IMG/VR virus record: IMGVR_UViG_3300020474_000005
Span: 12,000 to 75,999 of that record
DNA length: 64,000 nucleotides
Direction: 5' to 3' (one strand)
Source: a virus
Below, one piece after another: positions 6,318 through 32,893 of this stretch; position 1 is the first letter of the stretch, and the number at the start of each line of letters is the position of its first letter. The position numbers and the translations under genes were made by a program. The notes below the pieces were generated by a model. The model saw only the letters and a program-made list of their open reading frames with translations. It was not told the DNA's origin and ran no database searches.

Positions 6318-6339
6318 CGTGCTAAAAAAGGAGTACACA

Positions 6340-10889: not shown

Positions 10890-12173
10890 ATGACAAGACA
10901 ACTAATTAACACCGGTACTTTACCTAACGATGGTCAGGGTGACTCGTTACGTGATGCTGGTACAAAACTAAATTCCAATTTCAATGAGGTATATACTGCC
11001 CTTGGAAATGGAACGACTTTAACAGTCGTACAAAATAATTTATTCAACGCAACAGGTGCCAACAAAATTGCATTTTTATATAATGCACTTTCCGATCTGC
11101 CTAATGCTACAACCTATCATGGTATGTTCGCCCACGTACATACTGAAGGTGCGGCATACTACGCTCACGCAGGCAACTGGGTTAAACTTCTTGACGCTAA
11201 CAAGTCGATTGACCTTCTATCGGATGTAGACACTTCATCAGCGGCTCCAACAAATGGACAAGCATTAGTTTGGGACGCAGGTGGTTCAAAATGGAAACCG
11301 GGAACAGTATCCGGTGGTGGAGGCGGCAGTGGTGTCACTTTATTCACAGGACTGACTGATACTCCAAGTTCATTCAGTGGATATGCAAATGGTTTTTTAA
11401 GAGTTAACACCGCGGCAGATGGTCTAGAACTTACAACAAGTTTTGGAATTGACACATTGTCAGATGTTGACACAACAACTTCGGCTCCAACAGCAGGACA
11501 AGTTTTAAAATGGAGTGGTACAAAATGGCAACCAGCGGCTGATTCAACATCAGGCGGCGGTGCATCGGATGCCTCAACATTAGATGGTTTAGATAGTACA
11601 TACTTCTTAAACTACAACAACTTGAACAACAAACCTACAATCGCAACTGCATTTACAGGATTAACAGATACTCCTGCAAACTTCTCAGGTGCTGAAGGTA
11701 GATTTGTTAAAGTCAACGCAGGTGGAACAGCATTAGAATTTGTGACTTCGTCAGCGGCTTCAACAGCATTCAATGATTTGACAGACGTTACAACAACAGG
11801 TGCGGCACAAGGTGATGTAGTTTACTACAATGGAACTGCATGGGTGTTGCAAAATGGTCCAGTAACTAGATGGAATCTTGGAACTAATGGAGCACAAGAC
11901 TACACATTCAGTGGTCCTGGTTTTCCAACAACAACTAATGACCCAGTATTATATTTGAGCAGAGGACAGACTTACGTTTTTGTAAATGGTGGAGGCTCTA
12001 CGCACCCATTTGAAATAAGAGTTTCAAACGGTGGAAGTGCGTATAGTTCAGGAGTAAGTGGTTCACAATCAGGAACACAGGTGTTCACTGTACCAATGAA
12101 TGCTCCAAGTACTTTGTATTATCAATGTACGGCGCATAGTGGAATGGGTAACACAATTAATATTGTAACATAA
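10890..12173 (+). CDS. short fibre with T4 gp9/gp10-like N-terminus and cupredoxin-like C-terminal domain
   Basis: N-terminal INTGTLPNDGQGDSLRDAGTKLNSNF; internal LSDVDT...GQxLxW and FTGLTDTP repeats; C-terminal HPF...YQCTAHSGM. Confidence 0.7.
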   Translation: MTRQLINTGTLPNDGQGDSLRDAGTKLNSNFNEVYTALGNGTTLTVVQNNLFNATGANKIAFLYNALSDLPNATTYHGMFAHVHTEGAAYYAHAGNWVKLLDANKSIDLLSDVDTSSAAPTNGQALVWDAGGSKWKPGTVSGGGGGSGVTLFTGLTDTPSSFSGYANGFLRVNTAADGLELTTSFGIDTLSDVDTTTSAPTAGQVLKWSGTKWQPAADSTSGGGASDASTLDGLDSTYFLNYNNLNNKPTIATAFTGLTDTPANFSGAEGRFVKVNAGGTALEFVTSSAASTAFNDLTDVTTTGAAQGDVVYYNGTAWVLQNGPVTRWNLGTNGAQDYTFSGPGFPTTTNDPVLYLSRGQTYVFVNGGGSTHPFEIRVSNGGSAYSSGVSGSQSGTQVFTVPMNAPSTLYYQCTAHSGMGNTINIVT

Positions 12174-12181
12174 GGATTATA

Positions 12182-12556
12182 ATGGCACAAGTTTTTGGAG
12201 TAGGCATAGATGAATTACAGAAGACACTTGGTAACAACAGGTATTTCTATGGTTTACGCAGAACTTCAGATGGAACGATCTACATGGTAAAAGCAGATTT
12301 GCTTGAACTGGAAGATGGTGTAGAATTGAATAGACCAGGAAATATTAATGAAAATTATAACAATTGGTCACGTGGAGAGGATTTCTTTGAAGGCAGAGAC
12401 ACTCAACACAAACTTGTTTATAAAAACCTTGTTTATGAACAGTACAAATGGGACGGAAGAAACCTATTTTACTACGTGAATAAAGATGGTGAATTGGTAT
12501 TAAAAGTTAACGAGGCGCAGACGTATACAGGATACGTTGAACCTTATAGTAGTTAG
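12182..12556 (+). CDS. virion structural protein (paralog of 10409..10870)
   Basis: Motifs shared with 10409..10870. Confidence 0.7.
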   Translation: MAQVFGVGIDELQKTLGNNRYFYGLRRTSDGTIYMVKADLLELEDGVELNRPGNINENYNNWSRGEDFFEGRDTQHKLVYKNLVYEQYKWDGRNLFYYVNKDGELVLKVNEAQTYTGYVEPYSS

Positions 12557-17785: not shown

Positions 17786-20700
17786 ATGGCAGAGTTTAAA
17801 CTAGGTAGAATACGTTTTGTATGGAAAGGTGCTTGGTACACGAGCACTATATACAGTGTAGATGACGTTGTAAGATACGGTGGTAGAACATATATCTGTG
17901 TTGTCAACCACACGGCTAACGCATCATTTCAAGTTGATTTAACAGCGGCAAATTGGGCGTTGATGTCCGATGGTCAAGAATGGAAAGGCGATTGGAGTCT
18001 TAACACAACTTACAAACCAAACGATATTGTAAAATACGGTGGTTACATTTACATTGCTAACACAGGACACACATCTAGTTCAAGTGCATCAGACGGATTA
18101 GAAGTTGATTCTTCTAAATGGGATTTATTCATTGAAGGTTTTGATTACAAATCATCTTGGGCAATCAACACAAGATACAAAGTTAACGATTTAGTAAAAT
18201 ACGGCGGAGTAGTTTATCTTTGTATAACAGAACACACTTCAGCGGCAACAACCGCAGATGGTTTAGAAACTGATCAAGCGAAATGGGAAGCATTTTCAAA
18301 AGGATTCAATTGGTTAAACACTTGGGCAACTAGCACAAGATACAAATCAAAAGACACAGTTTCATATGGTGGACAGATTTATGTTTGTATAACAGGTCAC
18401 ACATCAAACGCATCGGCGGCATCAGGATTAGAAGCCGACCAAGCGAAATGGGAATACCTACACAAAGGTATAGAGTACAAAGGTGCTTTCGCAGGTACAA
18501 CAAGATACAAAGCAAACGATGTTGTTAAAGGTGGAGCAAACTTATACATCTGTACAACAGGTTACACATCAACAACAGATATAAATGCAGATGCATCTAA
18601 CTGGTCATTATTTGTTCCAGGTTTAGAATTTGAAGATTCATGGAGTTCAGCAACAAAATATCAACCAGGTGACACAGTTACTTACGGTGGTTACCAATAT
18701 GTTGCAAAAACTTTAAACGAAAATAAAGTTCCGTCAACGCAAACAAGTGACTGGGCATTATTTGTAACAGGATTTAATTTAAGAGGCGACTACAACAACG
18801 GAACAGCATACAAAACTGGTGACGTTGTAAGAGTTGGTGGTTTCACTTACATAAACATTGCAGACTCAACAGGTAATAGACCACCTAACGTTGTATACTG
18901 GAACAAACTTAATGAAGGTATGTACTGGAAAGGCAACTGGGCCAATGCAACTTATTACGACAAAGGTGATATTGTAAGAGGAACATTAAACACAGATACA
19001 TCTTATATTTGTGTTGGTTCGCACACATCGAACAATCAAGCACCAAGCACAATCAATCAACCAGATTATCCAGCAGGAGCAGGTGTAGACACATCTAACT
19101 GGCAATTATTATCAGGCGGTCCTGAAAATGATGTATTATCTGCACAAGGTGATATTTTAATTTACGGTGCATCTGGTCCACAAAGATTACCAATTGGCAC
19201 ATCGGGACAAGCATTAGTTGTTAATGCGGCAGGTACTTTACCAGAATGGGGCAACGTAGGTAAAATTGATCAAGTTTATTATGTAAGTCCAAATGGAACG
19301 GACAAACCAGCACCAACATCAGGTGTAACTTTAGATAGAGCATGGAAAACAATTAGATATGCACTTCATGAAATAGATAAAGGTCCTAGAAACCCACAAG
19401 CGGCTTATATGCTTACAAGAAACAAAGCATACATCCAAGATGAAACTATTGCTTGGATCAATGCACAGATTGCCGGTAACGTTCCACCATTTACAACTTC
19501 GTTCACATACGGCGCAGTAAAATGTAGAAGAGACATTGGTATAATCATTGACGCAACAATCTATGACTTAACACACGGTGGAAACATTAAATCAAGATTT
19601 GCGGCATTAAATTACTTTACACCAGCAGGTGCTTCTTATGTAACAGGACAAACGTCTGAAACAGCGGCGTCTATTGTTCAGGCAAGTGCTATTGCTAAAT
19701 TAGTTGTTGCAAACGGAACACACAGTAACTTACAAGGTTCAACACCTAAGTATGCAAATGCGGCTTACACAGCAGAAGAAGGTACAACTACACTAATTGA
19801 AACATTGATGAAATATTCATCAGATGCAATCACGGCAGGTAACGTAACAAGTGTACCAGTAGCAAACAATCCAAACATTACTTTAAATGTTAAAACAGGA
19901 ATTTACAACGAAATTCTTCCAATGAGAGTTTCAAGAAACACAGCAGTTGTTGGAGATGAATTAAGATCAACAAACATCAGACCAGCGGCTTCAGTTGTTA
20001 ACTCTTCAGATGTACAATACAGTCTACAAGGTATACAACGTATGGAAGCAATTATAAGCGATGTTGTACAAAACAACTCAGTAACAAAAACACCATCAGG
20101 TGGTGTTGTGTCAGTTACTATGCCAGGTGGTTACATAGGTGTAACTCAAGGTACAGGAACAGCAGTTTCTTCAACTGGTGGTGATGGTACAGGTGCAACA
20201 TTTAATATCACAACTAACGCATTTGGTTTCGTAACTAATTTAACAGTGGCGGCTCCAGGACAAAGTTATATAATTGGAAACAATATTACAATACCAGCAA
20301 GTACAGTTATCGTTGGAACAAGTGGTAACACAACACTTGGTGTTGCAGTTACTTTCCCAGTTACAGCAGTAACTTCAGGAAACACACTAACACAGAACAC
20401 AGATGCTCCGGCAGGTAACGCGACTGTTGGTACTAGAGCGGCTACAATCGCTGATCAAATTGAGAAGTACATTGACTTCAAAATCAACGCAAACGGTTCG
20501 GAACCAGCACTTCAAGGTAGCAATATTGCTGAATTTACAGCGGCTTACACAGATGCAAGATTAAGACTTTTAGCAAACAAAGAATTTATTGCCAAAGAGG
20601 CGGCTGAATATGTGAAAAGACAAAACCCAGGCGTAAGTTTTGTTGTTGCAGATTGTGAAGATGACATCAAAGATTACGTAGACGGAATTATTCACGACTT

Positions 20701-23461
20701 ACAATACACTGGTAACCAAAGATCATTACAAGGTGCAGAATGGTATGTGAACGCAGTACAAGGTTCAACTACTAAAAATATGTTCCATATGAGAAATGCA
20801 ACTGGTTTAAGAAACTGTACACTACAAGGTTTAACAGGAACACTAGGATCAGCAAACAGTTATGGTACAAAACGTCCATCAGCAGGTGCTTTTGTTTCAC
20901 TAGATCCAGGATACGGTCCACAAGATTACAAAACATGGATTGCTACTCCGGCGGCAGGTACATTATCATACACACCAACTAATGGTACATATGATCCTGC
21001 AACAGGAACAACAGTATTAACAATTGGTGCTCACAACATGGAAGCAGGTGAGTCTGTTAGAATTACAACAGCAAGTTTAAGTTTCCAATGTTCACAGGAC
21101 AACTACAACACAACTCATGCTTATCCAAGAACAACTGACCCAGCGGCAGGTAAAGAATTATTAATCGAAGCAGTCACTGACACAACAATTCAAGTTAATG
21201 TTGGTGCAAGTGGCGGCGGAGACCAATACATTCACAGATGGGTAAGTGCATCAGCAAACTCAGTACAACAAGAAGTTGTATGTAGAGTAGGTGGTAGATC
21301 ACCTTACGTACAAAACGTAACAAACTTTGGTACAGCGGCAATTGGATTAAAAATTGATGGTAACTTACACGAAGGTGGTAACGATTCAATCGTTGCTAAT
21401 GACTTCACACAGGTAATTTCCGATGGTATAGGTGCTTGGGTAACTAACTTAGGTAGAGCAGAACTTGTTTCTGTATTCTCATACTACGGACACATAGGTT
21501 ACCTTGCAGAGAACGGTGGAAAAATTAGAGCAACAAACGGTAACTCATCATATGGTGACTTTGGTTGTGTGTCAGAAGGTGTTGACTCAACAGAAGTTCC
21601 AATTACAGCAACAGTTGACAACAGATCAACAGATGCACTTGCAGATGTATTCACAGACGGAAGTGCGATACAGGCGCTATTCTACAAAAACGCAGGTAGA
21701 GAATATGTTGCTAACCAAGTAACTTTAACTTTCTCAGGTGATGGTTACGGATTGAACACACCAGCGGCAACAGTTAATACAGGTGGTATATACGAAATTA
21801 GAGTAACTGATCCAGCAGGTAACAACTTGGGTGGTGACGGTTACATTACAACAACTAACTCAGCACAAACAGGAACAACAACACAGATCACTTTAGCGGC
21901 GGCAGACAGCAGAGCCTCAAGTGCTTATGTTGGTATGTTCTTATTAATTACAGAAGGTAAAGGTGCAGGTCAATATGGTTACATTGACACTTACAGTTCA
22001 GCAAGTAAAATTGCAACAATTAAAAAACTTTCAGACAACAGTGCAGGTTTTGATGTACTAGGTGGCGTAAGTGTTGAAGCAAGTTTAGATTCTACAACAA
22101 CTTATGAAATTACTCCAAGAGTACAGATAGGTGCACCGGCAGGAGATGGTTCAACTGCAACAAGAAACGCAGTTGGTATAGCAACAGTTGTAACAAATAA
22201 AATTACACAAATTAGAATGATCGATTGTGGTGCTTCTTACACAACTGCACCAACAATAACACTTGTTGATCCTAACAACACAGCGGACGCAACATTACAA
22301 TCTTACATTGGTGATGGTGTGTTAGGTCCACCAACATTTGTTGCAAGAGGTATTGATTACAAAACAGCGGCAGTAACTATAACTGCACAAGGTACACAGG
22401 CAACTGTGACAGGTATCACACAGGCTGGACCTGCAGTGGTAACAACACAGGCGGCTCACAACTTTAGCACAGGTGATAGAGTTAAATTCACTGGTATAGT
22501 TGGAATGATAGAATTGAATACTGCTGTGTTCTATTATGTAAAAACTATAAACGCAACTACATTTTATCTTTTTGCTGATAATGACTTTTTAGTTCCAATA
22601 GATTCAACAAATTACACTGCATACTCAAGTGGTGGTACAGCAGAATTGTTTGGTGGATTTAGAGATTCACATCAATCAGGCAAATACATACAAGTAGAAA
22701 ATTTAAGTGCTTTACCAAGAGCAGGAGCAAACATCGAGTTTGGTCACAGACCAGGCATTTACTACAAACTAGTTGCTATCACTAGTCAACTTGGAACACA
22801 AACACCTTACAGTGCATTGTTACAAGTTTCACCAAACGTGACGGCGCAGTATGCACCTGACCATGGAACAAGTTTATCTATAAGAATTAGATATTCACAA
22901 AACAGATTAACAGGACACGATTTCTTAGATATTGGTACTGGTAACTTCACTTCAACGAATTATCCAGGCTCACCAAATCAGAATCCAATACCGGCTAACG
23001 AAACTGTTGAAGGCGGCGGAGGTAGAGTATTCTTTACTTCAACTGACCAAGACGGTAACTTCAGAGTTGGTGACTTGTTCAACGTAGAACAGGCAACAGG
23101 TATTGCGTCATTGAATGCAGATGCATTCAACATTTCAGGACTACAAGAATTACAGTTGGGAGATCTAGCATTAGGAGGATCTAGTGCTTCAATTAACGAG
23201 TTTTCAACTGATGGAACGATGGCGGCTAACTCAGACGCTATTGTACCAACACAAAGAGCAATACGAACTTATATCGCTTCACAGATCGGTGGTGGTGCTA
23301 GTTCGCTCAATGTTAACTTAATTACTGCTGGATTAGTGGTAATTACGGGTAATACAATAAGTACAAGTAACAACAGTAAAATTACTATTAGCAGTGTTGC
23401 AAACTTCACAAAAGGTGTAACTGGTGTGCCAATAGCGATGAATATGTTGATACATAGTTAA
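17786..23461 (+). CDS. giant fibre/adhesin with CBM5/12-like repeats and beta-helix (1891 aa)
   Basis: Same architecture and C-terminal RLTGHDFLDIGTG...STDQDGNFR block as 12585..17750. Confidence 0.7.
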   Translation: MAEFKLGRIRFVWKGAWYTSTIYSVDDVVRYGGRTYICVVNHTANASFQVDLTAANWALMSDGQEWKGDWSLNTTYKPNDIVKYGGYIYIANTGHTSSSSASDGLEVDSSKWDLFIEGFDYKSSWAINTRYKVNDLVKYGGVVYLCITEHTSAATTADGLETDQAKWEAFSKGFNWLNTWATSTRYKSKDTVSYGGQIYVCITGHTSNASAASGLEADQAKWEYLHKGIEYKGAFAGTTRYKANDVVKGGANLYICTTGYTSTTDINADASNWSLFVPGLEFEDSWSSATKYQPGDTVTYGGYQYVAKTLNENKVPSTQTSDWALFVTGFNLRGDYNNGTAYKTGDVVRVGGFTYINIADSTGNRPPNVVYWNKLNEGMYWKGNWANATYYDKGDIVRGTLNTDTSYICVGSHTSNNQAPSTINQPDYPAGAGVDTSNWQLLSGGPENDVLSAQGDILIYGASGPQRLPIGTSGQALVVNAAGTLPEWGNVGKIDQVYYVSPNGTDKPAPTSGVTLDRAWKTIRYALHEIDKGPRNPQAAYMLTRNKAYIQDETIAWINAQIAGNVPPFTTSFTYGAVKCRRDIGIIIDATIYDLTHGGNIKSRFAALNYFTPAGASYVTGQTSETAASIVQASAIAKLVVANGTHSNLQGSTPKYANAAYTAEEGTTTLIETLMKYSSDAITAGNVTSVPVANNPNITLNVKTGIYNEILPMRVSRNTAVVGDELRSTNIRPAASVVNSSDVQYSLQGIQRMEAIISDVVQNNSVTKTPSGGVVSVTMPGGYIGVTQGTGTAVSSTGGDGTGATFNITTNAFGFVTNLTVAAPGQSYIIGNNITIPASTVIVGTSGNTTLGVAVTFPVTAVTSGNTLTQNTDAPAGNATVGTRAATIADQIEKYIDFKINANGSEPALQGSNIAEFTAAYTDARLRLLANKEFIAKEAAEYVKRQNPGVSFVVADCEDDIKDYVDGIIHDLQYTGNQRSLQGAEWYVNAVQGSTTKNMFHMRNATGLRNCTLQGLTGTLGSANSYGTKRPSAGAFVSLDPGYGPQDYKTWIATPAAGTLSYTPTNGTYDPATGTTVLTIGAHNMEAGESVRITTASLSFQCSQDNYNTTHAYPRTTDPAAGKELLIEAVTDTTIQVNVGASGGGDQYIHRWVSASANSVQQEVVCRVGGRSPYVQNVTNFGTAAIGLKIDGNLHEGGNDSIVANDFTQVISDGIGAWVTNLGRAELVSVFSYYGHIGYLAENGGKIRATNGNSSYGDFGCVSEGVDSTEVPITATVDNRSTDALADVFTDGSAIQALFYKNAGREYVANQVTLTFSGDGYGLNTPAATVNTGGIYEIRVTDPAGNNLGGDGYITTTNSAQTGTTTQITLAAADSRASSAYVGMFLLITEGKGAGQYGYIDTYSSASKIATIKKLSDNSAGFDVLGGVSVEASLDSTTTYEITPRVQIGAPAGDGSTATRNAVGIATVVTNKITQIRMIDCGASYTTAPTITLVDPNNTADATLQSYIGDGVLGPPTFVARGIDYKTAAVTITAQGTQATVTGITQAGPAVVTTQAAHNFSTGDRVKFTGIVGMIELNTAVFYYVKTINATTFYLFADNDFLVPIDSTNYTAYSSGGTAELFGGFRDSHQSGKYIQVENLSALPRAGANIEFGHRPGIYYKLVAITSQLGTQTPYSALLQVSPNVTAQYAPDHGTSLSIRIRYSQNRLTGHDFLDIGTGNFTSTNYPGSPNQNPIPANETVEGGGGRVFFTSTDQDGNFRVGDLFNVEQATGIASLNADAFNISGLQELQLGDLALGGSSASINEFSTDGTMAANSDAIVPTQRAIRTYIASQIGGGASSLNVNLITAGLVVITGNTISTSNNSKITISSVANFTKGVTGVPIAMNMLIHS

Positions 23462-23485: not shown

Positions 23486-23806
23486 ATGGCATCAGGAAGA
23501 ATAGGAAAAGCAAATCTTACTGCCGCTACCAATACCACTGTGTATACGACACCTGCTTCAACTTTCACGGTTGCATCAGTATCGTTTTGTAACAGAGGTA
23601 ATCAAGCCATTAGTGTCAGATTAGCGGTGGCGGATAGTGCAACTCCAGATAACGCAGAATTTGTTGAATTTGAAACAGAAATTCTGTCTCATGGGGTGTT
23701 AGAAAGAACAGGTTTGGTACTGAGTGCAACACAGAAATTGGTTGCATACTCTAGTGCGGCTAACGTAAGTGTGGTAGTTACTGGTATAGAAACAAGTACT
23801 GCTTAA
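23486..23806 (+). CDS. small virion connector-like protein (106 aa)
   Basis: Paralog of 1838..2170; AGGAG RBS. Confidence 0.7.
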   Translation: MASGRIGKANLTAATNTTVYTTPASTFTVASVSFCNRGNQAISVRLAVADSATPDNAEFVEFETEILSHGVLERTGLVLSATQKLVAYSSAANVSVVVTGIETSTA

Positions 23807-23853
23807 TTTTGTGTAGAATAACATAAATAGTATAAACGAAGGAAACAAAAAAA

Positions 23854-24186
23854 ATGGGAAGATACATATCAACAACTGGAACTGCTGGAGTATCCACTAA
23901 AATAGTGAGTACAACACACCAAGCGGCGGTAAATGAGAGAATCTTAGCAAACAGTTCTTCAGGAACGTTTACAATAACGTTACCTACGAACACTAGTTTA
24001 TTGACAAATGATACAATTCAAATCATCGACGCAAACTCTAGTTTCGGAACTAACGCGGTAACTGTTGCAAGAAATTCATCTTTAATTCAAGGAGCGGCAG
24101 ACGATTTGACTCTTGACTTAAATGGTGCAATAGTAACTTTAATTTACACAGGTTCGACTTATGGTTGGATCGTAGGTGCTGTATAA
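23854..24186 (+). CDS. stand-alone tail-fibre attachment-type domain (T4 gp34 N-terminal repeat-like)
   Basis: Motif FTITLP...IQIIDA...NAVTVARN...IQG..DDLTLD.NGA.VTLIY....GW. Confidence 0.55.
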   Translation: MGRYISTTGTAGVSTKIVSTTHQAAVNERILANSSSGTFTITLPTNTSLLTNDTIQIIDANSSFGTNAVTVARNSSLIQGAADDLTLDLNGAIVTLIYTGSTYGWIVGAV

Positions 24187-24234
24187 TATTTTTTATTATA
24201 CTACACTTATAAAACTAATTGGGAATCGGAGACT

Positions 24235-25197
24235 ATGGCAAGTTTAAAATCATTACTCGGTACAAAGCAAGATGCATTCGTATCGGTTGCGGAATCTAAC
24301 CTAGAAAAAGGTCAGATTTTTACATACCATAACGGTGCAAACTACTCTAGAATATGGTGCGGATTTTGTTTCCATCCAAGCGTATCTGGAACAGCAGTAG
24401 TAGAGGCGTGGGGAGCAGGTGGCTCTGGCGCTGAGATGTGTTGTTGCGGTTTTGGTCTTCCAGGTAACTCAGGTGCCTATGTTAAGAAAACAGTTGTGAT
24501 GTCAGTCGGCGACTACATTTGTGGTTGTACTGGTATATCTTGCGGAAATTCATCAGATTTATGTTTTAGAGGTTGTTCAGAACCTACCATGTTAAGATTT
24601 TGCATAGGTGGCGCAGAGACTTGCGTGTGTGCAGAAGGTGGTAGAGGTGGAATAACTTATTGTTCAACTAATAACAGTTTTTATTGTTGCTACAGAGCAA
24701 ATGGTTTCTGTGTAACAAAAACAGACAATAACCAATGTGGAATTATTTGTAACCAATGTAACGGTGCATGGGTAGCCTGTGCATACGGTGGTGAAACAAA
24801 TAAACCAGGATTAAATTCTTGTGTATCAGCATTTGGTTGTTATCCATCATGTATTTGTATGTTTAATCACCACATTCCAACTCCAGCGGGACAAGGTTCC
24901 AAAGAGGGAAGGATGATTGTATATACAAATGACAACAGTAACGATTTTGCACAATGGTCAGGTCAAGGTCATCACCAACACAGAGCAAATTTAGGATCAG
25001 GTAGATTTCCAACAGGCGGTATACCTTGGTCATCTTGTTGGGGTTTCAGTGGTGCTTGTGGTTGTTATGAAAACGACGGTTGTGTTCCAGTGCTTCCAGT
25101 AGGAACTGGTGGTAGAGGACCTAACCCTTGTCCAGGTGTTAGAGATCACGCAATCAGAGGTGGCTTTGGAGCAGTAAGGATTAGATTTATTAGTTAA
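24235..25197 (+). CDS. Cys-rich glycine-rich-domain protein 1 (putative adhesin/fibre tip)
   Basis: About 30 Cys in 320 aa; WGAGGSGAEMCCCG, A-x-GG-x-GG and RGGFGAVRIRF. Confidence 0.6.
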   Translation: MASLKSLLGTKQDAFVSVAESNLEKGQIFTYHNGANYSRIWCGFCFHPSVSGTAVVEAWGAGGSGAEMCCCGFGLPGNSGAYVKKTVVMSVGDYICGCTGISCGNSSDLCFRGCSEPTMLRFCIGGAETCVCAEGGRGGITYCSTNNSFYCCYRANGFCVTKTDNNQCGIICNQCNGAWVACAYGGETNKPGLNSCVSAFGCYPSCICMFNHHIPTPAGQGSKEGRMIVYTNDNSNDFAQWSGQGHHQHRANLGSGRFPTGGIPWSSCWGFSGACGCYENDGCVPVLPVGTGGRGPNPCPGVRDHAIRGGFGAVRIRFIS

Positions 25198-25206
25198 GGA
25201 TTTATT

Positions 25207-26220
25207 ATGGCAAGTTTAACAACATTATTACAAACCAAATATGATTTTGCAGTAGGTAACGAGACTAACCTAGAGCAAGGAAGAATTTATCAGTACTATC
25301 CAGGCAGTGCTAGAGGTACAAACTTTAGATGTCACGTATGTTGGGTAGCACCATCGGCTGGTACAGCAACTATTGAGATATGGGGTGCTGGTGGATCAGG
25401 TGCAGAGATGTGCTGTTGTGGATTTGGTATTAACGGAAATCCAGGAGCATACAGTAAAAAAGTTTTAACAATGGCATCAGGCTGTTTCATTTGTGGAATA
25501 GTTGGTCAGTCATGTGGTAACGCAGATGACCTATGTCACAGAGGTACTTCAGAGTCAACACAAATTTGTTGGTTTGCAGGCGGTGCCGACGGTTGTATGT
25601 GTGCCCAAGGTGGTAAGGGTGGTTACTCTTACTGTTCAACAGGTAACTCAGGTTACTGTTGTTTTGTAGCAGGTGCTTTCTGTAACACACAAGGCGGAGA
25701 TTCATACTGCGGAATTATTTGTAACTTTAAAGATTCATCAAGTGAACCAACTTTCTGTGCCCAAGCATATGGCGGAGATAATAACTGCTACGGCGGATTC
25801 AGTTGTTTCTATTTTAGAGGATGTCAACCAAACTGTAACTGTAGACAAGTTCCAGTTCTTAGATTCCCACCAGGACAGATATCTACAAAAGGTGGTGAAG
25901 TACACTACACATTAGATTCTGACAATGGAAGATCACAATGGTCAGGAATGGGTGGTTGGATGAATGCCTCACACGGATTTAACCTTGCAACAAGATCACC
26001 AACACAGGGTGGTCCATACACTGCTTGTTGGACAGGTAACAGAAGTTGCGGTTGTTATCAAGCAAATGGTTGTATACCTTTCATGCCAGCAGGAATTGGT
26101 GGACAAGGTCCAAGACCATGTGATGGTGTAAGAGATCACGCACACAGAGGTGGTCATGGTATGATTAGAATTAAATTTGTAAGTACTACTAGTGATTACG
26201 ATCTAGATAGTGCACCGTAA
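25207..26220 (+). CDS. Cys-rich glycine-rich-domain protein 2
   Basis: About 29 Cys in 337 aa; same motifs. Confidence 0.6.
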   Translation: MASLTTLLQTKYDFAVGNETNLEQGRIYQYYPGSARGTNFRCHVCWVAPSAGTATIEIWGAGGSGAEMCCCGFGINGNPGAYSKKVLTMASGCFICGIVGQSCGNADDLCHRGTSESTQICWFAGGADGCMCAQGGKGGYSYCSTGNSGYCCFVAGAFCNTQGGDSYCGIICNFKDSSSEPTFCAQAYGGDNNCYGGFSCFYFRGCQPNCNCRQVPVLRFPPGQISTKGGEVHYTLDSDNGRSQWSGMGGWMNASHGFNLATRSPTQGGPYTACWTGNRSCGCYQANGCIPFMPAGIGGQGPRPCDGVRDHAHRGGHGMIRIKFVSTTSDYDLDSAP

Positions 26221-26242
26221 GGATAAGGAGTAAATATAGTAT

Positions 26243-27220
26243 ATGGCTAGTTTAAAAGGATTATTAACTAATAGAAACCCAGCAGAGATGGTTGAGGAAA
26301 ACCTAGAGACTGGATATATCTACGTATGGACTCCAGGTACTAACTACACTAACTTTTGTAATGGTGTATGTTGGACGGCTCCAGCGGCTGGTAAGGCTCA
26401 CATAGAAATATGGGGAGCAGGCGGTTCAGGTGCTAGAATGTGTTGTTGTGGTGACGGATTACCAGGCAACGCAGGTGGATATTCTTATAGAGAAATTACT
26501 GTAGAAGCAAACGACACACTAACAGGATGTACAGGTATGCCTTGTCAGGCTCACCCATTATGTCACTCAGGATGTTCTAACCCAACAGGTATTTGTTGGA
26601 TAACAGCATCTAACGGAAATGGCTGTATGTGTGCAAGAGGTGGTTACGGTGGAAAATCAATGTGTACAACAGGAAGTTCTTTATACTGTTGTTACAGAGC
26701 ACAAGGATTCTGCACTGTAAGATGTAACAATGATAACTGTGGACTAGTTTGTAACGTATGTACAGACGGTAGTACAGATTCATGGCAGTCGTGTGCTTAT
26801 GGTGGAACAATTAACTGTTGCGGACAATTCGGTTGTGTATCATTCTTTGGATGTTGCCCACACTGTAAATGTAGATTCCAGCAACACGTTCCGATTCCAG
26901 CAGGACAATTTGCTGTTAACGGTGCGTTGATTACTTTCCAGAAAGAGTCGGATGGAACTCCGATGTCTAACTGGTCAGGTAACCAAATATTCCAATACTA
27001 TGCGGCTTTGAACTCAGCATCTAAAACGCCAAGACAAGGAACTCCAGACTCACACTGTTGGAGATCAGATAGAGCGTGTGGATGTTATGAAATGCAAGGA
27101 TGTAACAACTATCTACCAGTGGGTGGTGGCGGAATTGGCCCTAACCCATGTCCTGATGTAAGAGATCACGGAATCAGAGGTGGATTCGGAGGAGTAAGAA
27201 TCAGATTTGTTGCTTCATAA
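26243..27220 (+). CDS. Cys-rich glycine-rich-domain protein 3
   Basis: About 33 Cys in 325 aa; same motifs. Confidence 0.6.
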   Translation: MASLKGLLTNRNPAEMVEENLETGYIYVWTPGTNYTNFCNGVCWTAPAAGKAHIEIWGAGGSGARMCCCGDGLPGNAGGYSYREITVEANDTLTGCTGMPCQAHPLCHSGCSNPTGICWITASNGNGCMCARGGYGGKSMCTTGSSLYCCYRAQGFCTVRCNNDNCGLVCNVCTDGSTDSWQSCAYGGTINCCGQFGCVSFFGCCPHCKCRFQQHVPIPAGQFAVNGALITFQKESDGTPMSNWSGNQIFQYYAALNSASKTPRQGTPDSHCWRSDRACGCYEMQGCNNYLPVGGGGIGPNPCPDVRDHGIRGGFGGVRIRFVAS

Positions 27221-27262
27221 TAATTGAAGTTAGATAAATAAAACTGTAAGAGGATAAAAACA

Positions 27263-27907
27263 ATGTTTACAAAAGAATTTAGTATAGCAATGCCAAATGA
27301 ACCACTAAAGAACGACTTTAGTGACAACACAACTATCACAGGAACTTACAAAGGTCCAAGATACATTAAAATCGAGTACAACAACGAATCTAAAGTTGTT
27401 GGTAACTGGATTGATGAAGGTGACACAGAGGCAGAATTTGCAGGTAACCCAGTAGCAGAAGGTTATACATCAACAACTTTAGACGCAGATGTTGATACAA
27501 AATGGGTTGCATACATAACAGGTTTTTATTCAACAGGTGACGTTGCTGACTACGAAGAAGACTTAGGCACAACAGATGGTAACGGTGACGCAGAAAAATT
27601 TACTTTTTACTGGCACGATGGTTCAGGTGTACTTGCACAGATTTACAATCAAGGCACAATGAAATTTGAAGACGGTGCTATCACAGAACCTTCAGTAAGA
27701 GTTCACACAGTATCAGAAGCAGATTTCACAGAATCAGTAAACAGCCATATTGCTAACGCAACAACAGAAGCGGCAAGAGATGTTTACTCAGATGATGAAA
27801 AAACGGCTATCAATGCTTACAAATCTACACTAGAAGGTTTAAGCACAAAATACAGTGGTAAAGATCACTGGAAAATTCCTTTCCCACAACAACCAGACTA
27901 CAAATAA
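27263..27907 (+). CDS. putative tail-fibre assembly chaperone-like protein
   Basis: Acidic; C-terminal Y...L..L...HWKIPFPQQP resembles the ends of phage tail assembly chaperones; paralog of 28362..29090. Confidence 0.45.
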   Translation: MFTKEFSIAMPNEPLKNDFSDNTTITGTYKGPRYIKIEYNNESKVVGNWIDEGDTEAEFAGNPVAEGYTSTTLDADVDTKWVAYITGFYSTGDVADYEEDLGTTDGNGDAEKFTFYWHDGSGVLAQIYNQGTMKFEDGAITEPSVRVHTVSEADFTESVNSHIANATTEAARDVYSDDEKTAINAYKSTLEGLSTKYSGKDHWKIPFPQQPDYK

Positions 27908-27916
27908 TAATTTGCC

Positions 27917-28303
27917 ATGGCAACTGTAACAAGAGTAAACGGATCAGGTCTTTCAACAGCAGGAAACGTTTTTTACCCAGGTGCATTTGCATTTAAAATT
28001 TTAGTAAAAATTGCAAACGGTACAGCAGTTGATTTAAGAGCAGAAGATGATGCCCTTGACGAAACAGTAGAAGCAATTTGCAAAGAAATTAATCCTTTAG
28101 TTTATTGTACTACAGACGACAACAGTGGGACAATGACTGTTGTATGTGATAACAGTGCAACAGCGGCGGACTTACAAGCACGTATTAGACTAATTGGTAG
28201 AGCGGAAAACTATCCAACAAGCACAGTTACAGCAGTTGGACCAAATACTATTGATACAAGCGGTACATTAGTAACTCTCGCGGCAACATTAACAGCAACG
28301 TAA
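27917..28303 (+). CDS. hypothetical probable virion protein (128 aa)
   Basis: Ala/Thr-rich with highly expressed codon pattern. Confidence 0.65.
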   Translation: MATVTRVNGSGLSTAGNVFYPGAFAFKILVKIANGTAVDLRAEDDALDETVEAICKEINPLVYCTTDDNSGTMTVVCDNSATAADLQARIRLIGRAENYPTSTVTAVGPNTIDTSGTLVTLAATLTAT

Positions 28304-28361
28304 TCCAAAAAACACCAATCATTTTTAAAAGCAAGGTTTCGTTCACAAAATAAGTACGAGT

Positions 28362-29090
28362 ATGCCTTACAAAAAGATTGAAGTAGATGAAGCAGACAAA
28401 TACTCACAAGATGATTTGAATCATCTCACATTTATCAACAATAAAATCCCATTCGACGTCACACTACCAAATCAACCATACGTAGACGATTTCAGCGAAG
28501 GTGTAACTCACCCTTGTTTTTACACAGGACTGAATTTCATGAGAGTCAATAGACGTATCAAGGATGGATTGATATTGGAAGTTCTAGTAGAAGCAATGAG
28601 CCTGGAAGAAATAGAATCTAGAAAGATTATTCACGACGAGGGTTGCGACAGTTTTATAATTGATGCGAGAGAATATCCATGGGAAGCGGCTTTTATCAGT
28701 GGTAGATACTATCATGAAGATGTTCCAAACTATGTAGAGGAAATAGGCACAACAGATTTCTGGGGCAAACCAGAAGTTTGGGAGTATGTGCATTCACCTG
28801 AAACAGGATTAATGGCACAAATTTATTATGTGGGATCAATGCATTACAACGACGGCAAATATAGCACACCAAAATTTAGAGCACACATAATCGAACGCGA
28901 ATCATTTGATATGAACGTACAGGTACACATCAAAGACTGTGTTAGAGAAGCAAAAAGAGATGTTTACAACACGGAAGAAAGAGATTATATTATTAAGTAT
29001 GGTGAATGGTTAAAAACAGTGCCTCAAACATACAAAAATATCAAGCATTGGAAGATATTATTCCCTCAACTTCCCGAGTTTAAACCCTAA
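28362..29090 (+). CDS. putative chaperone-like protein (paralog of 27263..27907)
   Basis: Shared PNxPxxxDFS, YxEExGTTD, GxxAQIY, EAxRDVY and HWKIxFPQxP. Confidence 0.5.
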   Translation: MPYKKIEVDEADKYSQDDLNHLTFINNKIPFDVTLPNQPYVDDFSEGVTHPCFYTGLNFMRVNRRIKDGLILEVLVEAMSLEEIESRKIIHDEGCDSFIIDAREYPWEAAFISGRYYHEDVPNYVEEIGTTDFWGKPEVWEYVHSPETGLMAQIYYVGSMHYNDGKYSTPKFRAHIIERESFDMNVQVHIKDCVREAKRDVYNTEERDYIIKYGEWLKTVPQTYKNIKHWKILFPQLPEFKP

Positions 29091-29135
29091 TCAGACTTAA
29101 CATACCTTTAGCAGACCAATCATTAAATAAATTAT

Positions 29136-30086
29136 ATGAGCAATTCGAAAAGACCTAAGGCTTTTTTTCTAAATGGCGGAATGGGAAGAATAATATCTGC
29201 GATTCCTGCCTTGGAAAAATATTATGAATCAAAGGAAGATCCTGATTTTATTATTGTGATTGAAGGTATTTGTAATATCCTAAATGGACATCCAACATTG
29301 GATAATAAAACTTATGATATGTATCATAAAAATTTATTCCACACAAAATTAATTAACATGGACATAGTAAGTCCTGAACCTTACAGACTGAATGAATATT
29401 TCAATCAGAAATGTGACATCGCCCAAGCATTTGATATACTGATTAACAAAAAAGGAGTAAGAAAATTGCCTGCTCCAACGTTAATATTAAGTAAAGAAGA
29501 ACTTTTAGAAGGAAGAAAAGCAGTAGATGAAATAAAAGAAAAAGTTAAGAAAGAAAAATTAGTCATCATACAACCTTTTGGACGTGCTATTACACAAATA
29601 GATAATTCTTTCATAGACAAAAGCAATAGAAGTATAGAATTCACAAATTTAAAAAAAATTATTAAAAAATTACAAGAAAAAGATTGGGCAGTATGCGTAA
29701 TGGCTGAGTTCGGAATAGAATTTAAAGACGCAGGATTTAAAGATGAGGTTGCTATTCCTGAAATAGCAGATTTACGTAACTGGGCAGGTTTAATAAAGTA
29801 TGCAGATCACTTTTTAGGATGTGATAGTGTAGGTCAACATCTTGCAAAAGCAATGGAAACTCCAGCAAGTGTTGTTATGGGAGCAACGTATCCGATAAAC
29901 ACTTCATATCCAGACGATAAAAGTTTTAAAATTATTGATATGGGACAATTTGATAGAGAATATGACCCTATAAGAATAAGTTTCGATGAAAGGATCAGTA
30001 GAAAGCATGAAAGAATTATGTCAATGACTCCTGAAATAGAAGATTATGTAGTGTCTGCTGTTAACGGAGATCCAATAGAGGAATAA
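29136..30086 (+). CDS. GT9 (ADP-heptose heptosyltransferase-like) glycosyltransferase A
   Basis: GGMGRIISAIPAL resembles WaaC SSMGDVLHTLPAL; ADHFLGCDSVGQHLAKAMETPASVVMGAT resembles the GT9 DxGxxH motif. Confidence 0.7.
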   Translation: MSNSKRPKAFFLNGGMGRIISAIPALEKYYESKEDPDFIIVIEGICNILNGHPTLDNKTYDMYHKNLFHTKLINMDIVSPEPYRLNEYFNQKCDIAQAFDILINKKGVRKLPAPTLILSKEELLEGRKAVDEIKEKVKKEKLVIIQPFGRAITQIDNSFIDKSNRSIEFTNLKKIIKKLQEKDWAVCVMAEFGIEFKDAGFKDEVAIPEIADLRNWAGLIKYADHFLGCDSVGQHLAKAMETPASVVMGATYPINTSYPDDKSFKIIDMGQFDREYDPIRISFDERISRKHERIMSMTPEIEDYVVSAVNGDPIEE

Positions 30087-30087
30087 C

Positions 30088-31920
30088 ATGAGTGATGATT
30101 TAAACAAATACAACAAAACAGGATACATAGCCGCAGTGGCAAGAGGTCACAACGCAGGTGTATGTTTACTGAAAGACGGCAAAATAGTATTTTCAATAGA
30201 AGAAGAAAGACTATCAAGAAGAAAATATGATGGTGGTCCTTATGCTTCCATGTTTGAAATATTAAAATACACGGACAAGATTGATTACCTAATAATTGCA
30301 CATACACAATCATTGAAAGATCCATCTACTGGCAGAGTAGATTATTCAGGAGATGATGTATACACAGGTATTGCTAGAAAGTTAGGATTAATAGATCCAT
30401 ACATTCATAAGATAGAACATCCACAAGTTATTGACTTATCACATATACACCACAAACTTCATGCCGCGTGTGCATTTTATAGATCAGGTTTTGACAAAGC
30501 AGTTGCAGTGATTGTTGACGGTGCAGGAACTTTTATACCTATTAAGAATAGTGTAGCAGGTGACATGACTGTATTTGAAGTTGAAAGTATATTCAGTTGT
30601 GATTATCCTAATGATATCTTTGCACTGTACAAACATTATGCAACAGGCACAGCAAGTCCAGGAGGTTACTATCCTGAAATGGATTCGGAAAGTATTAGTG
30701 AACCAGGAAAAACACATGAAGCATTATTCACAGACAAAGCAGGCATAACAAAAACATATGAAGCAATAACTCAGTATTGTGGATTCAGTGCCATTGAGGC
30801 AGGAAAGACTATGGGATTGTTTCCTTATGGAAAGAAAAATGATGTAATACCACCACTGTTTCAAAAAGAAGGAAAATTTGAATTATCAAATAGAAACTTT
30901 ATCATACCAACTTACCCAAATGCGGCGCAGGTAAACAGTCAAATATATCCTTTTGTGGATGCTAATCCTGATTCTGATAAAGGCGAAGATTGGACAAAAA
31001 TGCAAAACAGAAGAGACATGGCTTACGCAGTACAAAAAGAAACACAGAAACAATGTTTAGATTTAATTTACAAAGCAGTTGAGATGAGTGGATGTAAAAA
31101 TGTTGTGTTTTCTGGAGGATACGGATTAAATTGTGTGGCAAATTATTATTATCTTGAAAGTTTACAAAAAGACGGTATTAAGTTATATGCTGAACCAGTT
31201 TCAAATGATGCGGGAACGGCAATGGGTGCGGCTATGTTGTTCTATTACAGCCTTACACAAACAAAAGAAAAGAAAGTTGATGCACCAACTTTGTACTTAG
31301 GTCCAAAAAGAGAATACACACAAGAGCAAATAAGCGGAATATGTCAAAGACCAGGTGTTGTTTTAGAAGATTGTGACGATTCTAAAGTTGTAGAACTTTT
31401 AGTTAATAAAAATATTGTATCAATATTCCAAGGGCAAAGTGAAAATGGTCCTAGGGCATTAGGTAATAGAAGTATTTTGTTTGATCCAAGATTCAAAGAC
31501 GGTAAAGATTATGTAAACAGAGTGAAAAACCGTGAATACTTTAGACCATTTGCTGGAACAATACTTCATGATTACGTGCATGATTGGTTTGATCTACGTG
31601 GAATGGAAGAAACTCCACATATGATGTATGCTGTAAACTGTCAACCAGGTATAGAAGAGAAGATTCCAAGTATAATTCACGTGGACGGTACTTGCAGAAT
31701 ACAATCTGTGAAACGTGAACAGAATCCTTTGTATTATGACCTAATAAAAGAGTTCCATAAACAAACAGAATGTCCTATAATTTTCAATACATCATTTAAT
31801 TTAGGTGGTGAACCATTAGTTGAGACATTAGAAGACGCAGTAAGAACATTACAACACAGCGAAATAGAATATCTATATTTGCCAGAGTACAAAAAGATAG
31901 TAAAGGTTTTAAATGGCTAG
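30088..31920 (+). CDS. O-carbamoyltransferase (NodU/CmcH/TobZ family)
   Basis: EEERLSRRK, HHKLHA, VDGAG, GKTMGL, SGGYGLNCVAN, GPRALGNRSIL, RPFA, HVDGTCRIQ and NTSFN. Confidence 0.92.
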   Translation: MSDDLNKYNKTGYIAAVARGHNAGVCLLKDGKIVFSIEEERLSRRKYDGGPYASMFEILKYTDKIDYLIIAHTQSLKDPSTGRVDYSGDDVYTGIARKLGLIDPYIHKIEHPQVIDLSHIHHKLHAACAFYRSGFDKAVAVIVDGAGTFIPIKNSVAGDMTVFEVESIFSCDYPNDIFALYKHYATGTASPGGYYPEMDSESISEPGKTHEALFTDKAGITKTYEAITQYCGFSAIEAGKTMGLFPYGKKNDVIPPLFQKEGKFELSNRNFIIPTYPNAAQVNSQIYPFVDANPDSDKGEDWTKMQNRRDMAYAVQKETQKQCLDLIYKAVEMSGCKNVVFSGGYGLNCVANYYYLESLQKDGIKLYAEPVSNDAGTAMGAAMLFYYSLTQTKEKKVDAPTLYLGPKREYTQEQISGICQRPGVVLEDCDDSKVVELLVNKNIVSIFQGQSENGPRALGNRSILFDPRFKDGKDYVNRVKNREYFRPFAGTILHDYVHDWFDLRGMEETPHMMYAVNCQPGIEEKIPSIIHVDGTCRIQSVKREQNPLYYDLIKEFHKQTECPIIFNTSFNLGGEPLVETLEDAVRTLQHSEIEYLYLPEYKKIVKVLNG

Positions 31921-32893
31921 AAAAACAGCAATATTTGTAAACGGTGGTGCAGGTAGAAGCATAAGTTCAATACCAGCAATAGAAAAATACATAGAAGAGA
32001 ACGCAGATCTAGATCCAATTATCATTTGCGAAGGTGGTACAGATGCATACAAAGGTCATCCTAAACTACATTATAGAGCATATGACAATTGGCACAAAAA
32101 TTTATTCCAAGATTTATTAAAAGATAGAGATTTATTATCGCCTGAACCATATAGAGTATGGGAATATTACAATCAAAAATGTAGTTTAGGTCAAGCATAT
32201 GATATAGCAATAAATGATAAAGGAATTAGAGATTTGCCAAGAGCAAATTTAAAATTAAGCAAGGAAGAAATATTATTAGCACGAAAAATGATTGCGGAAG
32301 TCAAAGAAAAAACAGGAAAAGATAAGATTGTTGTATTCCAACCTTTCGGCAGAGGCGCACAGCCAGAAAAACTTGATGAAAAACAAAAAGAAAAACAACC
32401 TGACATAATAGACTCTACAGGAAGAAGTGTAGAACTACAAAATGTTTGGAATATTGTACGTAAATTAAGCAAAGATTATGGTGTAATGGTAATGAGTGAA
32501 TTTCCATTAGACTTTGGAAAGCACATACCCAATAAACCAGTGGCATTGCCTATGGGAACACACATTAGAGTATGGATGGGTATTATTCAACAAGCGGATC
32601 ATTTTGTTGGTTGCGATTCAGTGGGTCAACATATTGCTCATTCATATAATAAATCAGCAACTGTGATAATAGGCTCTACGTATCCTATTAATACTACTTT
32701 TCCAGATGATGAAAAATTCAATGTAATTGATTTAGGTAAAGATGAACGTGTGTACAGTCCAATAAGAGTCACTTCAGATGAGTTTTCAGACAGACTTAAT
32801 GAAGGTATTATGGCTATGGATGAGGAAGTAGAAACACGTATTATTAAATCTGTACAAAGGCTTATCAAACACGGCAAAAACGCCCGTAAATAA
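31913..32893 (+). CDS. GT9-like glycosyltransferase B (paralog of 29136..30086)
   Basis: GGAGRSISSIPAI, QPFGRG and ADHFVGCDSVGQHIA. Confidence 0.7.
   Translation: MARKTAIFVNGGAGRSISSIPAIEKYIEENADLDPIIICEGGTDAYKGHPKLHYRAYDNWHKNLFQDLLKDRDLLSPEPYRVWEYYNQKCSLGQAYDIAINDKGIRDLPRANLKLSKEEILLARKMIAEVKEKTGKDKIVVFQPFGRGAQPEKLDEKQKEKQPDIIDSTGRSVELQNVWNIVRKLSKDYGVMVMSEFPLDFGKHIPNKPVALPMGTHIRVWMGIIQQADHFVGCDSVGQHIAHSYNKSATVIIGSTYPINTTFPDDEKFNVIDLGKDERVYSPIRVTSDEFSDRLNEGIMAMDEEVETRIIKSVQRLIKHGKNARK

Follow-up and report, generated by a model that had tools for sequence, protein, structure and literature searches.

We examined a 64,000-nucleotide stretch of viral DNA (positions 12,000 to 75,999 of the IMG/VR virus record IMGVR_UViG_3300020474_000005; hereafter the window), in which three tandem genes on the plus strand, termed A, B, and C, encode cysteine-rich paralogues close to genes for tail fibre proteins. 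The window belongs to a 76-kb viral contig, estimated to be 22% complete, and encodes a contractile-tail module that includes a gp9/10-like protein, baseplate wedge, sheath, tube, and terminase. Contigs related to it are up to 364 kb long. Paralogue A (24235..25197) is 320 amino acids (aa) long with 30 cysteines (9.4%) and is assigned a TNF-like and a Cys/Gly-rich domain. Paralogue B (25207..26220) has 337 aa and 29 cysteines (8.6%), and paralogue C (26243..27220), the member chosen for modelling, has 325 aa and 33 cysteines (10.2%). The genes are separated by only 9 (A to B) and 22 bases (B to C), and their products share 48 to 51% pairwise identity and contain 15 to 17% glycine. All three significantly matched phrog_4205, a family of unknown function (E 1.1e-12, 8.8e-13, and 8.2e-15 for A, B, and C, respectively).

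A preliminary description of this DNA, made from its letters alone, had counted about 30, 29, and 33 cysteines by eye at these coordinates, and the recount returned exactly these values. It had also listed aligned motifs, and WGAGGSGAxMCCCG, CxCAxGGxGG, YCC, CG(I/L)(I/V)CN, CGCY, and VRDH..RGG.G..RI.F were indeed invariant across A, B, and C. A short N-terminal helix, MASLKxLL, is kept in all three paralogues and in most relatives. The cysteines are unevenly distributed. In C, residues 58 to 211 (154 residues) hold 26 cysteines and 28 glycines (17% Cys, 18% Gly), residues 272 to 316 hold five cysteines, residues 1 to 57 two, and residues 212 to 271 none.

The surroundings are cysteine-poor, as had been claimed. 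The remaining plus-strand open reading frames (ORFs) of at least 100 aa in the window contain 0 to 2.4% cysteine with one exception (44218-44562); the flanking 1891-aa fibre is 0.6% cysteine, and no cysteine occurs in the neighbouring 110-aa and 214-aa proteins (p110 and p214). The exception is a 114-aa plus-strand ORF with 7.9% cysteine that lies antisense inside a 417-aa minus-strand ORF (44055-45308), within a block of minus-strand genes, and it is probably spurious rather than a gene.

Cysteine conservation and spacing

A word-indexed search returned 252 relatives, all unnamed metagenomic proteins of approximately 320 aa, and when 1.84 billion cluster representatives were searched exhaustively with a profile, only 218 proteins were returned; among the 150 of these that were listed, lengths were either those of the family (about 310 to 490 aa) or those of shorter fragments, and no bridge to cysteine-poor, glycine-rich proteins was present. 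On sequence grounds, the cysteine-rich proteins are a compact family. The preliminary description had named variable cysteine positions among homologues as one result that would speak against its proposal, whereas an alignment of 81 homologues contained 23 columns with at least 90% cysteine. Within orthologue groups, column entropy was 0.08 to 0.18 bit for cysteine, compared with 0.24 to 0.46 for glycine and 0.7 to 0.94 for other residues. Cysteines are the most conserved residues in the family.

The spacing of the cysteines was nonrandom. CC, CxC, and CxxxC were commoner than in shuffled sequences, the conserved spacings being CC, CCC, CxC, and CxxxC, while CxxC was depleted (1.37 per protein versus 2.87 in shuffled sequences). 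One variable pair, at positions 161 and 205 in C numbering, was gained and lost together (phi 0.78). In the family alignment, the cysteine-rich part contained no conserved histidine and no conserved aspartate or glutamate partners; the sole near-invariant histidine belongs to the C-terminal VRDH motif, which is absent from the members found in S-CAM phages, S-SSM7, and P-SSM2. Pfam gave no significant metal-binding match, a hit to DUF4213 at E 0.4 being noise.

These patterns bear on whether the tip carries metal, with cysteine thiolates coordinating Zn, Fe, Cu, or a cluster, either for stability or as 'Ferrojan horse' bait for the metal-uptake receptors of the host, a reading that we regard as unlikely. 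A cysteine content of 9 to 10% overall and 17% in the distal part would suit such a role, as would the fact that odd cysteine counts are as frequent as even ones, so that some cysteines would lie outside disulfides. CC and CxC motifs are also found in metallothioneins, and the proteins would be assembled in a reducing cytoplasm, with no phage DsbA found. However, the CxxC knuckle occurs at half of its shuffled expectation (metallothionein-like thiolate clusters remain compatible with this), and the cysteine-rich part has neither conserved histidine, aspartate, or glutamate nor a significant Pfam metal match. Trace metals are, moreover, scarce in the habitat of these phages. The metal or Fe-S loading proposed in the preliminary description thus gained no support, given the depletion of CxxC and the lack of a conserved histidine in the cysteine-rich part. 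The sequences likewise do not show the paired CxxC or CxxCxxC knuckles, often joined by histidine, that mark zinc-ribbon, zinc-knuckle, and ferredoxin-type sites.

Predicted fold

C was modelled with AlphaFold2 from the 81-sequence alignment, giving a mean predicted local distance difference test score (pLDDT) of 83 and a predicted TM-score of 0.83; the model displayed the TNF-like two-sheet beta-sandwich that is a feature of the TNF-like plus glycine-rich (TG) fold. Foldseek and VIA-align both ranked the tail fibre protein gp24 of the freshwater cyanophage Pam3 first (7ypx_A; Z 15.8, 192 residues, root-mean-square deviation 3.0), with residues 22 to 325 of the model matched to residues 76 to 277 of gp24. 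Next came a chain of the Bxb1 tail tip (Z 11.9), the ALK and LTK TG domains (Z 8 to 9 over approximately 150 residues), and TNF/C1q-type sandwiches (Z 4 to 5). Among predicted viral structures, the best matches were uncharacterized proteins of S-CAM3 and P-SSM2, followed by many proteins annotated as 'glycine-rich domain' or tail fibre. A profile of the 81 members found no match among PDB sequences, hence the relationship to Pam3 is visible by structure only.

Pam3 gp24 is described as a trimeric fibre in which a helical shaft at the N-terminus is followed by a TNF-like domain and by a distal domain with 39% glycine, for which host binding has been proposed; the product of an adjacent gene serves as its assembly chaperone, and disulfides fix the fibre to the baseplate (PMC9608196, PMC9942802). 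The trio resembles gp24 (PDB 7ypx, 7yfw) in being fibre-type proteins with an adjoining partner gene and a trimeric state, the latter predicted for the trio, and in retaining the first glycine motif before the Y-x-K strand (WGAGGSG...PGNAGAY). This motif (WGAGGSG, then G.G.PGN.G) persists although residues 58 to 211 of C, which DSSP assigned to many short strands, are just 18% glycine. Differences are also substantial. Identity is 18%, the trio carries approximately 120 extra residues, and the shaft (residues 1 to 75 of gp24) is missing. In the C model only a 10-residue helix region, with the helix itself at residues 3 to 10, precedes the sandwich, and the long N-terminal helical bundle of gp24 is absent; the P-SSM2 members are extended further at the N-terminus, by a stretch that by eye resembles a helix. 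Furthermore, gp24 is the product of one gene with the distal motif GGGGxGG, whereas the trio comprises three paralogues that have 16 to 18% glycine in the distal domain, compared with 39% in gp24, and 9 to 10% cysteine.

Weaker signals pointed to the same fold class. C reached 12.7 bits (E 0.13) against PF21722 (Gly_rich_2), below the cut-off of 24.3, and A and B had no match; the subthreshold alignment was nevertheless full-length, pairing residues 43 to 322 of C with positions 7 to 225 of the 226-position model. No family member reached this cut-off; ten of the 81 matched Gly_rich_2 at E ≤1, the best at 5e-4, and the nearest feature-space clusters in the ESM Atlas included a Gly_rich_2 cluster at 0.95. 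The trio shares its fold class and its position beside tail fibre genes with Gly_rich_2 proteins and with gp36, gp38, and gp39 of Syn9, and the IEIWG..G..R..G..Y motif aligns with Syn9 gp36 without gaps, placing the CCC triplet, by eye, opposite G-Q-S. Unlike the trio, the Syn9 TG proteins have 22 to 35% glycine and 0.8 to 2.5% cysteine, and Syn9 lacks the cysteine-rich family. Alignment of the family with Syn9 gp36 and gp38 by hhalign was insignificant (probability 2 to 9%). Syn9 gp39 (11150-12328 of the stretch examined) looks like two gp38 copies joined by an out-of-frame-looking hydrophobic stretch, perhaps because the sequence was duplicated and the record contains a frameshift.

Two further comparisons were made. 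The adhesin gp38 of Salmonella phage S16 and T2-type phages is likewise a small, separate glycine-motif protein; it caps a trimeric fibre by means of a short N-terminal attachment, and it served as a working analogy for the way in which A, B, and C would be seated on a fibre (PMC9608196, PMC9942802); S16 gp38, however, is monomeric, has a beta-helix middle domain, is not cysteine-rich, and was absent among the structural matches. The extracellular TG domain of ALK and LTK also joins a TNF-like and a glycine-rich part into a supradomain, a likeness at the level of the fold only; these animal receptor kinases are monomeric eukaryotic cytokine receptors of unrelated function.

Judging by the structural model, the trio is a cysteine-rich variant of the known TG fibre-tip fold. 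The glycine-rich fibre-tip or adhesin scaffold proposed in the preliminary description is therefore borne out, Pam3 gp24 being the best solved match (Z 15.8). That description had also held that a confident match to an already characterized family would count against its proposal, and here the outcome is divided: the fold does belong to such a family, but a literature search found no paper describing the cysteine-rich subfamily or its cultured-phage homologues. Since the Syn9 TG-type proteins are cysteine-poor and glycine-rich, the cysteine-rich state is derived: cysteines occupy sites at which relatives carry glycine-rich stretches, and about half of the glycines have been lost.

The fold also bears on whether the proteins are virion parts at all. 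They might instead have an intracellular function, such as that of an assembly factor, or target the envelope of the host. T4 gp38, for one, is no virion protein but a chaperone, the cysteine-poor TG proteins gp38 and gp39 of Syn9 are annotated 'tail fiber assembly', and published virion proteomes cover phages other than the identified carriers. Set against this, the solved relatives of the same fold are virion parts (the Pam3 fibre and the Bxb1 tail tip), 23 near-invariant cysteines in 320 aa would be hard to keep reduced and functional in the cytoplasm, and the cassette already provides another candidate for an assembly partner in p214. A nonvirion role is, in our estimation, improbable.

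Predicted trimer and copy number

A, B, and C were predicted with high confidence to form a complex. Modelled together, each chain with its own alignment, they reached an interaction prediction score from aligned errors (ipSAE) of 0.91 (0.90 to 0.92 between runs), compared with 0.33 for the best control; the ipSAE mark applied is reached by 58 of 80 solved complexes and by 2 of 110 mismatched pairs. Contact agreement between runs was at least 84%, and partner pLDDT was at least 80. The interface is cyclic, with approximately 400 contacts, and sets a strand at about residues 21 to 42 of one chain against residues of about 220 to 237 and 250 to 279 of the next. A is chain 1 and B chain 2 of this trimer. 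The interface segments are the least confident parts of the monomer model, and most cysteines lie outside the predicted interface. Modelling therefore supports a TNF-like trimer of A, B, and C, with the qualification that the score may partly reflect likeness to the solved Pam3 trimer and that a prediction is no demonstration of binding.

Copy number was closely tied to three. Among loci uncut by contig ends, 59 carried a tandem trio and 11 a single copy; for one single-copy lineage, the larger record was searched and held two further copies 22 kb away in the usual cassette, giving three in total. In this split lineage, two cysteine-rich genes thus sit in the cassette and the third 22 kb away before other large fibre genes. 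All five large contigs searched held three copies, two of these contigs being judged complete, and four cultured phages also had three. In a maximum-likelihood tree, A, B, and C formed three orthologue sets within the clade of the window.

It is the agreement between paralogue number and oligomer order in almost all genomes that leads us to infer a mixed A:B:C trimer. The alternative, that A, B, and C form three separate homotrimeric tips serving as alternative or additional knobs for different receptors or hosts, is possible, though less probable. Such homotrimers would use the N-terminal helix that they have in common to dock at equivalent positions, much like the spikes in the branched tailspike complexes found in CBA120-like phages. 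The split lineage, with two copies in the cassette and one 22 kb away by large fibre genes, looks as if its copies were meant for different fibres; P-SSM2 has two copies, Pam3 gp24 is itself a homotrimer, the window encodes many large fibre proteins, and the XD2-type neighbour comes from a family that docks several different spikes. But three copies nearly everywhere, over four diverged subfamilies and never four or more, would be unexpected for freely expanding adhesins. The three genes are tightly packed and operon-like, and the mixed A:B:C trimer, the sole combination modelled, was predicted with high confidence. The 'heterotrimeric or alternative' tip of the preliminary description is accordingly supported as far as the trimer goes (ipSAE 0.91 versus 0.33, with copy number almost always three), while a heterotrimer and alternative homotrimers are not distinguished.

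A proposed cysteine-rich fibre tip

Taking these results together, we propose with moderate confidence that A, B, and C make up a virion fibre-tip trimer of the TG fold, probably with one copy of each, in which the cysteine network most likely consists of disulfides. The proteins would be fibre-tip components of the virion with the TG fold seen in the Pam3 fibre. Without the helical shaft of Pam3, they would form a small trimeric knob attached to a different component of the fibre; the likely dock would be the XD2-type domain of p110 or the upstream 1891-aa fibre, reached via the short N-terminal helix. The TNF-like sandwiches are predicted to pack head to tail into the trimer, which would probably contain A, B, and C once each. 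In the distal half, where about half of the glycines have been lost and approximately 26 cysteines gained, these cysteines would form an intrachain cross-linking network. Disulfides would most likely close once the particle has been released into oxic seawater, yielding a rigid and stable host-binding tip. Several findings favour disulfides over metal: the statistics of cysteine spacing, the pair that covaries, the missing histidine ligands, and the precedent of virion disulfides in Pam3.

Several observations weigh against this interpretation. The complex test cannot separate a mixed trimer from homotrimers, and close relatives of a true partner are known to pass as well. P-SSM2 has two copies rather than three, and in the tree the S-CAM triplet forms a clade of its own, fully supported, so that its members are not one-to-one orthologues of A, B, and C; the separate clades imply that triplets arose repeatedly or were homogenized within lineages. 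Only six cysteine columns are common to all four subfamilies, yet cysteine content is 8 to 12% throughout. Among 230 members, 123 had an even number of cysteines and 107 an odd number, and sums per trio were of mixed parity (92, 93, 94, 96, and 93). As no even-number rule holds, some thiols would be free, metal-bound, or bonded between chains. A search for DsbA in the carrier phages, with a positive control, found none. The published virion proteomes (S-SM1, S-PM2, and Syn9) lie outside the identified carriers, so the virion location is taken from fold and context; Sullivan 2010 reports the S-SM1 virion proteomics and cites those of S-PM2 and Syn9. Finally, the trio keeps 75 to 81% identity, compared with 69 to 77% for the fibre and 44 to 54% for p214, and is thereby less variable than many receptor-binding tips. 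Because other genes in the cassette evolve faster than the trio, confidence in the term 'receptor-binding' is moderate, and a conserved receptor or a structural role fits better than a tip engaged in an arms race. A search of the carrier phages for Erv1/ALR also gave no match, but its control was silent too and the result is uninformative.

A more elaborate version would make the A:B:C heterotrimer obligate and its cysteine lattice chemically active, holding metal in an ocean poor in metals or acting as a redox switch, perhaps decorated with heptosyl or carbamoyl groups, on a module mobile between picocyanophage families. As a switch, the lattice would be reduced at assembly, oxidized and locked in seawater, and perhaps reopened at the host surface. 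We consider this whole scenario quite unlikely.

If the proposed TG-fold tip with its disulfide network is correct, approximately 90 cysteines per trimeric tip would make for unusual chemistry, given that the particle is put together in a reducing cytoplasm, and a cysteine-rich tip may bear on particle stability and decay in seawater. How marine cyanophages recognize Prochlorococcus and Synechococcus is largely unexplained, with most fibre genes annotated as hypothetical. A fold and a probable assembly can now be assigned to a conserved but unannotated gene trio.

Occurrence in cultured cyanophages and in seawater

A lineage of uncultured marine jumbo phages and the classical T4-like cyanophages share the trio as part of a cassette that moves as a unit. 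The terminase of the window (60211-61797) is closest to those of PA5oct-like Pseudomonas jumbo phages (52%) and not to those of Kyanoviridae; as the cassette is also found in T4-like cyanophages, it crosses phage families. The segment at 23486-32893, common to the jumbo lineage and T4-like cyanophages (Kyanoviridae), looks like an exchanged host-interaction module. Since the T4-like carriers are unrelated to the jumbo lineage, its presence in both fits a function at the host surface of marine picocyanobacteria.

In cultured phages, homologues were recovered as S-CAM1 SXBG_00224-226 (36, 31, and 25 cysteines), S-CAM3 gp156-158 (36, 35, and 24), S-SSM7 114-116 (261 to 264 aa; 29, 28, and 30), Sf-FS3 97-99 (28, 28, and 25), and P-SSM2 304 and 306 (356 and 355 aa with 36 cysteines each, and the longer N-terminal extension). 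They span 260 to 356 aa and 8 to 12% cysteine, belong to phrog_4205, and are all annotated 'hypothetical protein'. Homology was detected by hhalign with a probability of 98% for S-CAM1 and 87% for S-SSM7. Megablast of the region against cultured phages returned nothing, and tblastn with C against cultured phages gave only a short match in S-CAM1. The S-SSM7 and P-SSM2 members were reached solely through the neighbouring GT9-like gene, which is carried by 24 phage records; in the isolates examined (S-SSM7, P-SSM2, Sf-FS3, S-CAM1, and S-CAM3), cysteine-rich genes lie just upstream of it. With five cultured carriers (S-CAM1, S-CAM3, S-SSM7, Sf-FS3, and P-SSM2), virion location, stoichiometry, disulfide or metal content, and any glycosylation become measurable.

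Contigs carrying the trio also occurred in seawater metatranscriptomes from at least three studies. Those from RNA libraries were near-identical to the trio in two studies (0 to 2 differences per 300 to 960 bases) and more divergent in a third. This shows that the phage is common in seawater; contigs from RNA libraries are no proof of transcription, as DNA carry-over is possible.

Genes of the cassette

The cassette was found in about 70 viral contigs. Gene order was fixed in 33 close and 79 more distant IMG/VR loci, running from the fibre through p106, p110, A, B, and C to p214, which was followed sometimes by p128 and p242, then by a GT9-like gene, a carbamoyltransferase gene, and often a second GT9-like gene. 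The 1891-aa tail fibre (17786..23461, plus strand, as are all genes below) lies directly upstream. An orthologous large fibre precedes the cassette in related loci, and genes annotated 'tail fiber protein' precede the cassette in S-CAM1, S-CAM3, S-SSM7, and P-SSM2. The first small gene, p106 (23486..23806), encodes a stand-alone fibre-like domain of 106 aa that matched residues 124 to 214 of the 380-residue phrog_11338 'tail fiber protein' (E 5e-7). It always stands ahead of p110 and the trio, and homologues occur in S-CAM1, S-CAM3, and P-SSM2; a sequence search found no solved relative.

The 110-aa product of p110 (23854..24186), which matched PHROG tail and tailspike families, has an XD2-type domain. 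Its PDB matches were residues 99 to 174 of the tailspike in 7rej, 7rfo, and 7rfv (E 2e-7) and residues 67 to 138 of T4 gp10 (E 0.035). The preliminary description had called this domain gp34-like and suggested it as the adaptor of the tip, but the match is instead to the XD2 domain of CBA120 tailspike protein TSP4 and to T4 gp10. XD2-type domains of the CBA120 tailspikes and T4 gp10 dock other fibres or spikes, and by this analogy a docking-adaptor role is plausible for p110 as a candidate. The XD2-type domain is encoded by a separate gene in the window, S-CAM1, and S-CAM3 and forms the C-terminus of the upstream fibre in S-SSM7 (fused fibre at 1-2871 of the stretch examined), a split and fused pair that ties the small protein to the fibre.

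Directly after the trio, p214 (27263..27907) encodes a 214-aa conserved partner with a beta domain followed by C-terminal helices (AlphaFold2 pLDDT 95). It follows the trio in those IMG/VR loci that extend beyond it, and in cultured phages a gene of similar size follows the cysteine-rich genes, the S-CAM1, S-SSM7, and Sf-FS3 versions being p214-like by eye. It is the fastest-evolving gene of the cassette, with 30 to 54% identity compared with 51 to 81% for the trio across 33 loci. Foldseek and a wide VIA search found no solved relative of p214 with Z of at least 8, the best match (Z 6.4) covering residues 148 to 214 only and reflecting helical-hairpin background, and p214 had no detectable similarity to the Pam3 chaperone gp25. 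From gene position and domain order, our guess is that p214 is a tail fibre chaperone like Pam3 gp25 or Mu Tfa.

The end of the cassette (29136..32893) encodes the GT9-like protein, the carbamoyltransferase, and the second GT9-like protein, enzymes that always accompany the cysteine-rich genes. The carbamoyltransferase matched Carbam_trans_C (E 7e-58) and Carbam_trans_N (E 4e-24) in Pfam, whereas the Glyco_transf_9 match was weak (E 3e-4) and below the cut-off; the first GT9-like protein matched phrog_8954 (E 4e-125). Beside this subject, S-SSM7 (6311-6970) and Sf-FS3 (5305-5937 of the stretches examined) carry a prolyl-4-hydroxylase-like 2-oxoglutarate dioxygenase between the p214-like and GT9-like genes, and in S-CAM1, S-CAM3, and P-SSM2 the carbamoyltransferase is followed by ADP-heptose synthesis genes and a small cupin 'cysteine dioxygenase'. 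The dioxygenase, heptose, and cupin genes suggest that the modification of proteins or glycans may be connected with the cassette.

Whether the trio is itself the substrate of these enzymes, with heptose or carbamoyl-heptose placed on cysteine or on serine, threonine, or proline and the cysteine-rich surface existing to carry the modification, can be judged from the same genes. The GT9-like and carbamoyltransferase genes follow the cysteine-rich genes in all four subfamilies, heptose-synthesis genes are present in S-CAM1, S-CAM3, and P-SSM2 and the prolyl-4-hydroxylase-like protein in S-SSM7 and Sf-FS3, and GT9-like enzymes that heptosylate adhesins exist in bacteria (the TibC/AAH family). However, such genes are usually read as a lipopolysaccharide cluster for the host surface (Sullivan 2010), the GT9 match falls below the Pfam cut-off, and the invariant, buried-looking cysteine patterns (CCC, and CxC in strands) suit a structural role better. 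We give this only a slim chance, and the thiol modification by adjacent enzymes raised in the preliminary description found no backing beyond the strict co-inheritance of the genes.

Two genes between p214 and the enzymes are less constant. The optional p128 (27917..28303; 128 aa) was present in 3 of 33 related loci, and one metatranscriptome contig runs from 27905 straight to 28317, omitting it; its product gave a weak match (E 9e-4) to the C-terminus of phrog_11445, a minor tail protein family of 2001 aa. The other, p242 (28362..29090; 242 aa), is restricted to part of the lineage and is a paralogue of p214, with 32% identity over 211 residues (E 1e-38). The pair could act as chaperones or as the true specificity determinants. 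They are the two fastest-evolving genes of the cassette, keeping 33 to 54% identity where the trio keeps 75 to 81%, and the C-terminal motif HWKIPFPxxP is conserved.

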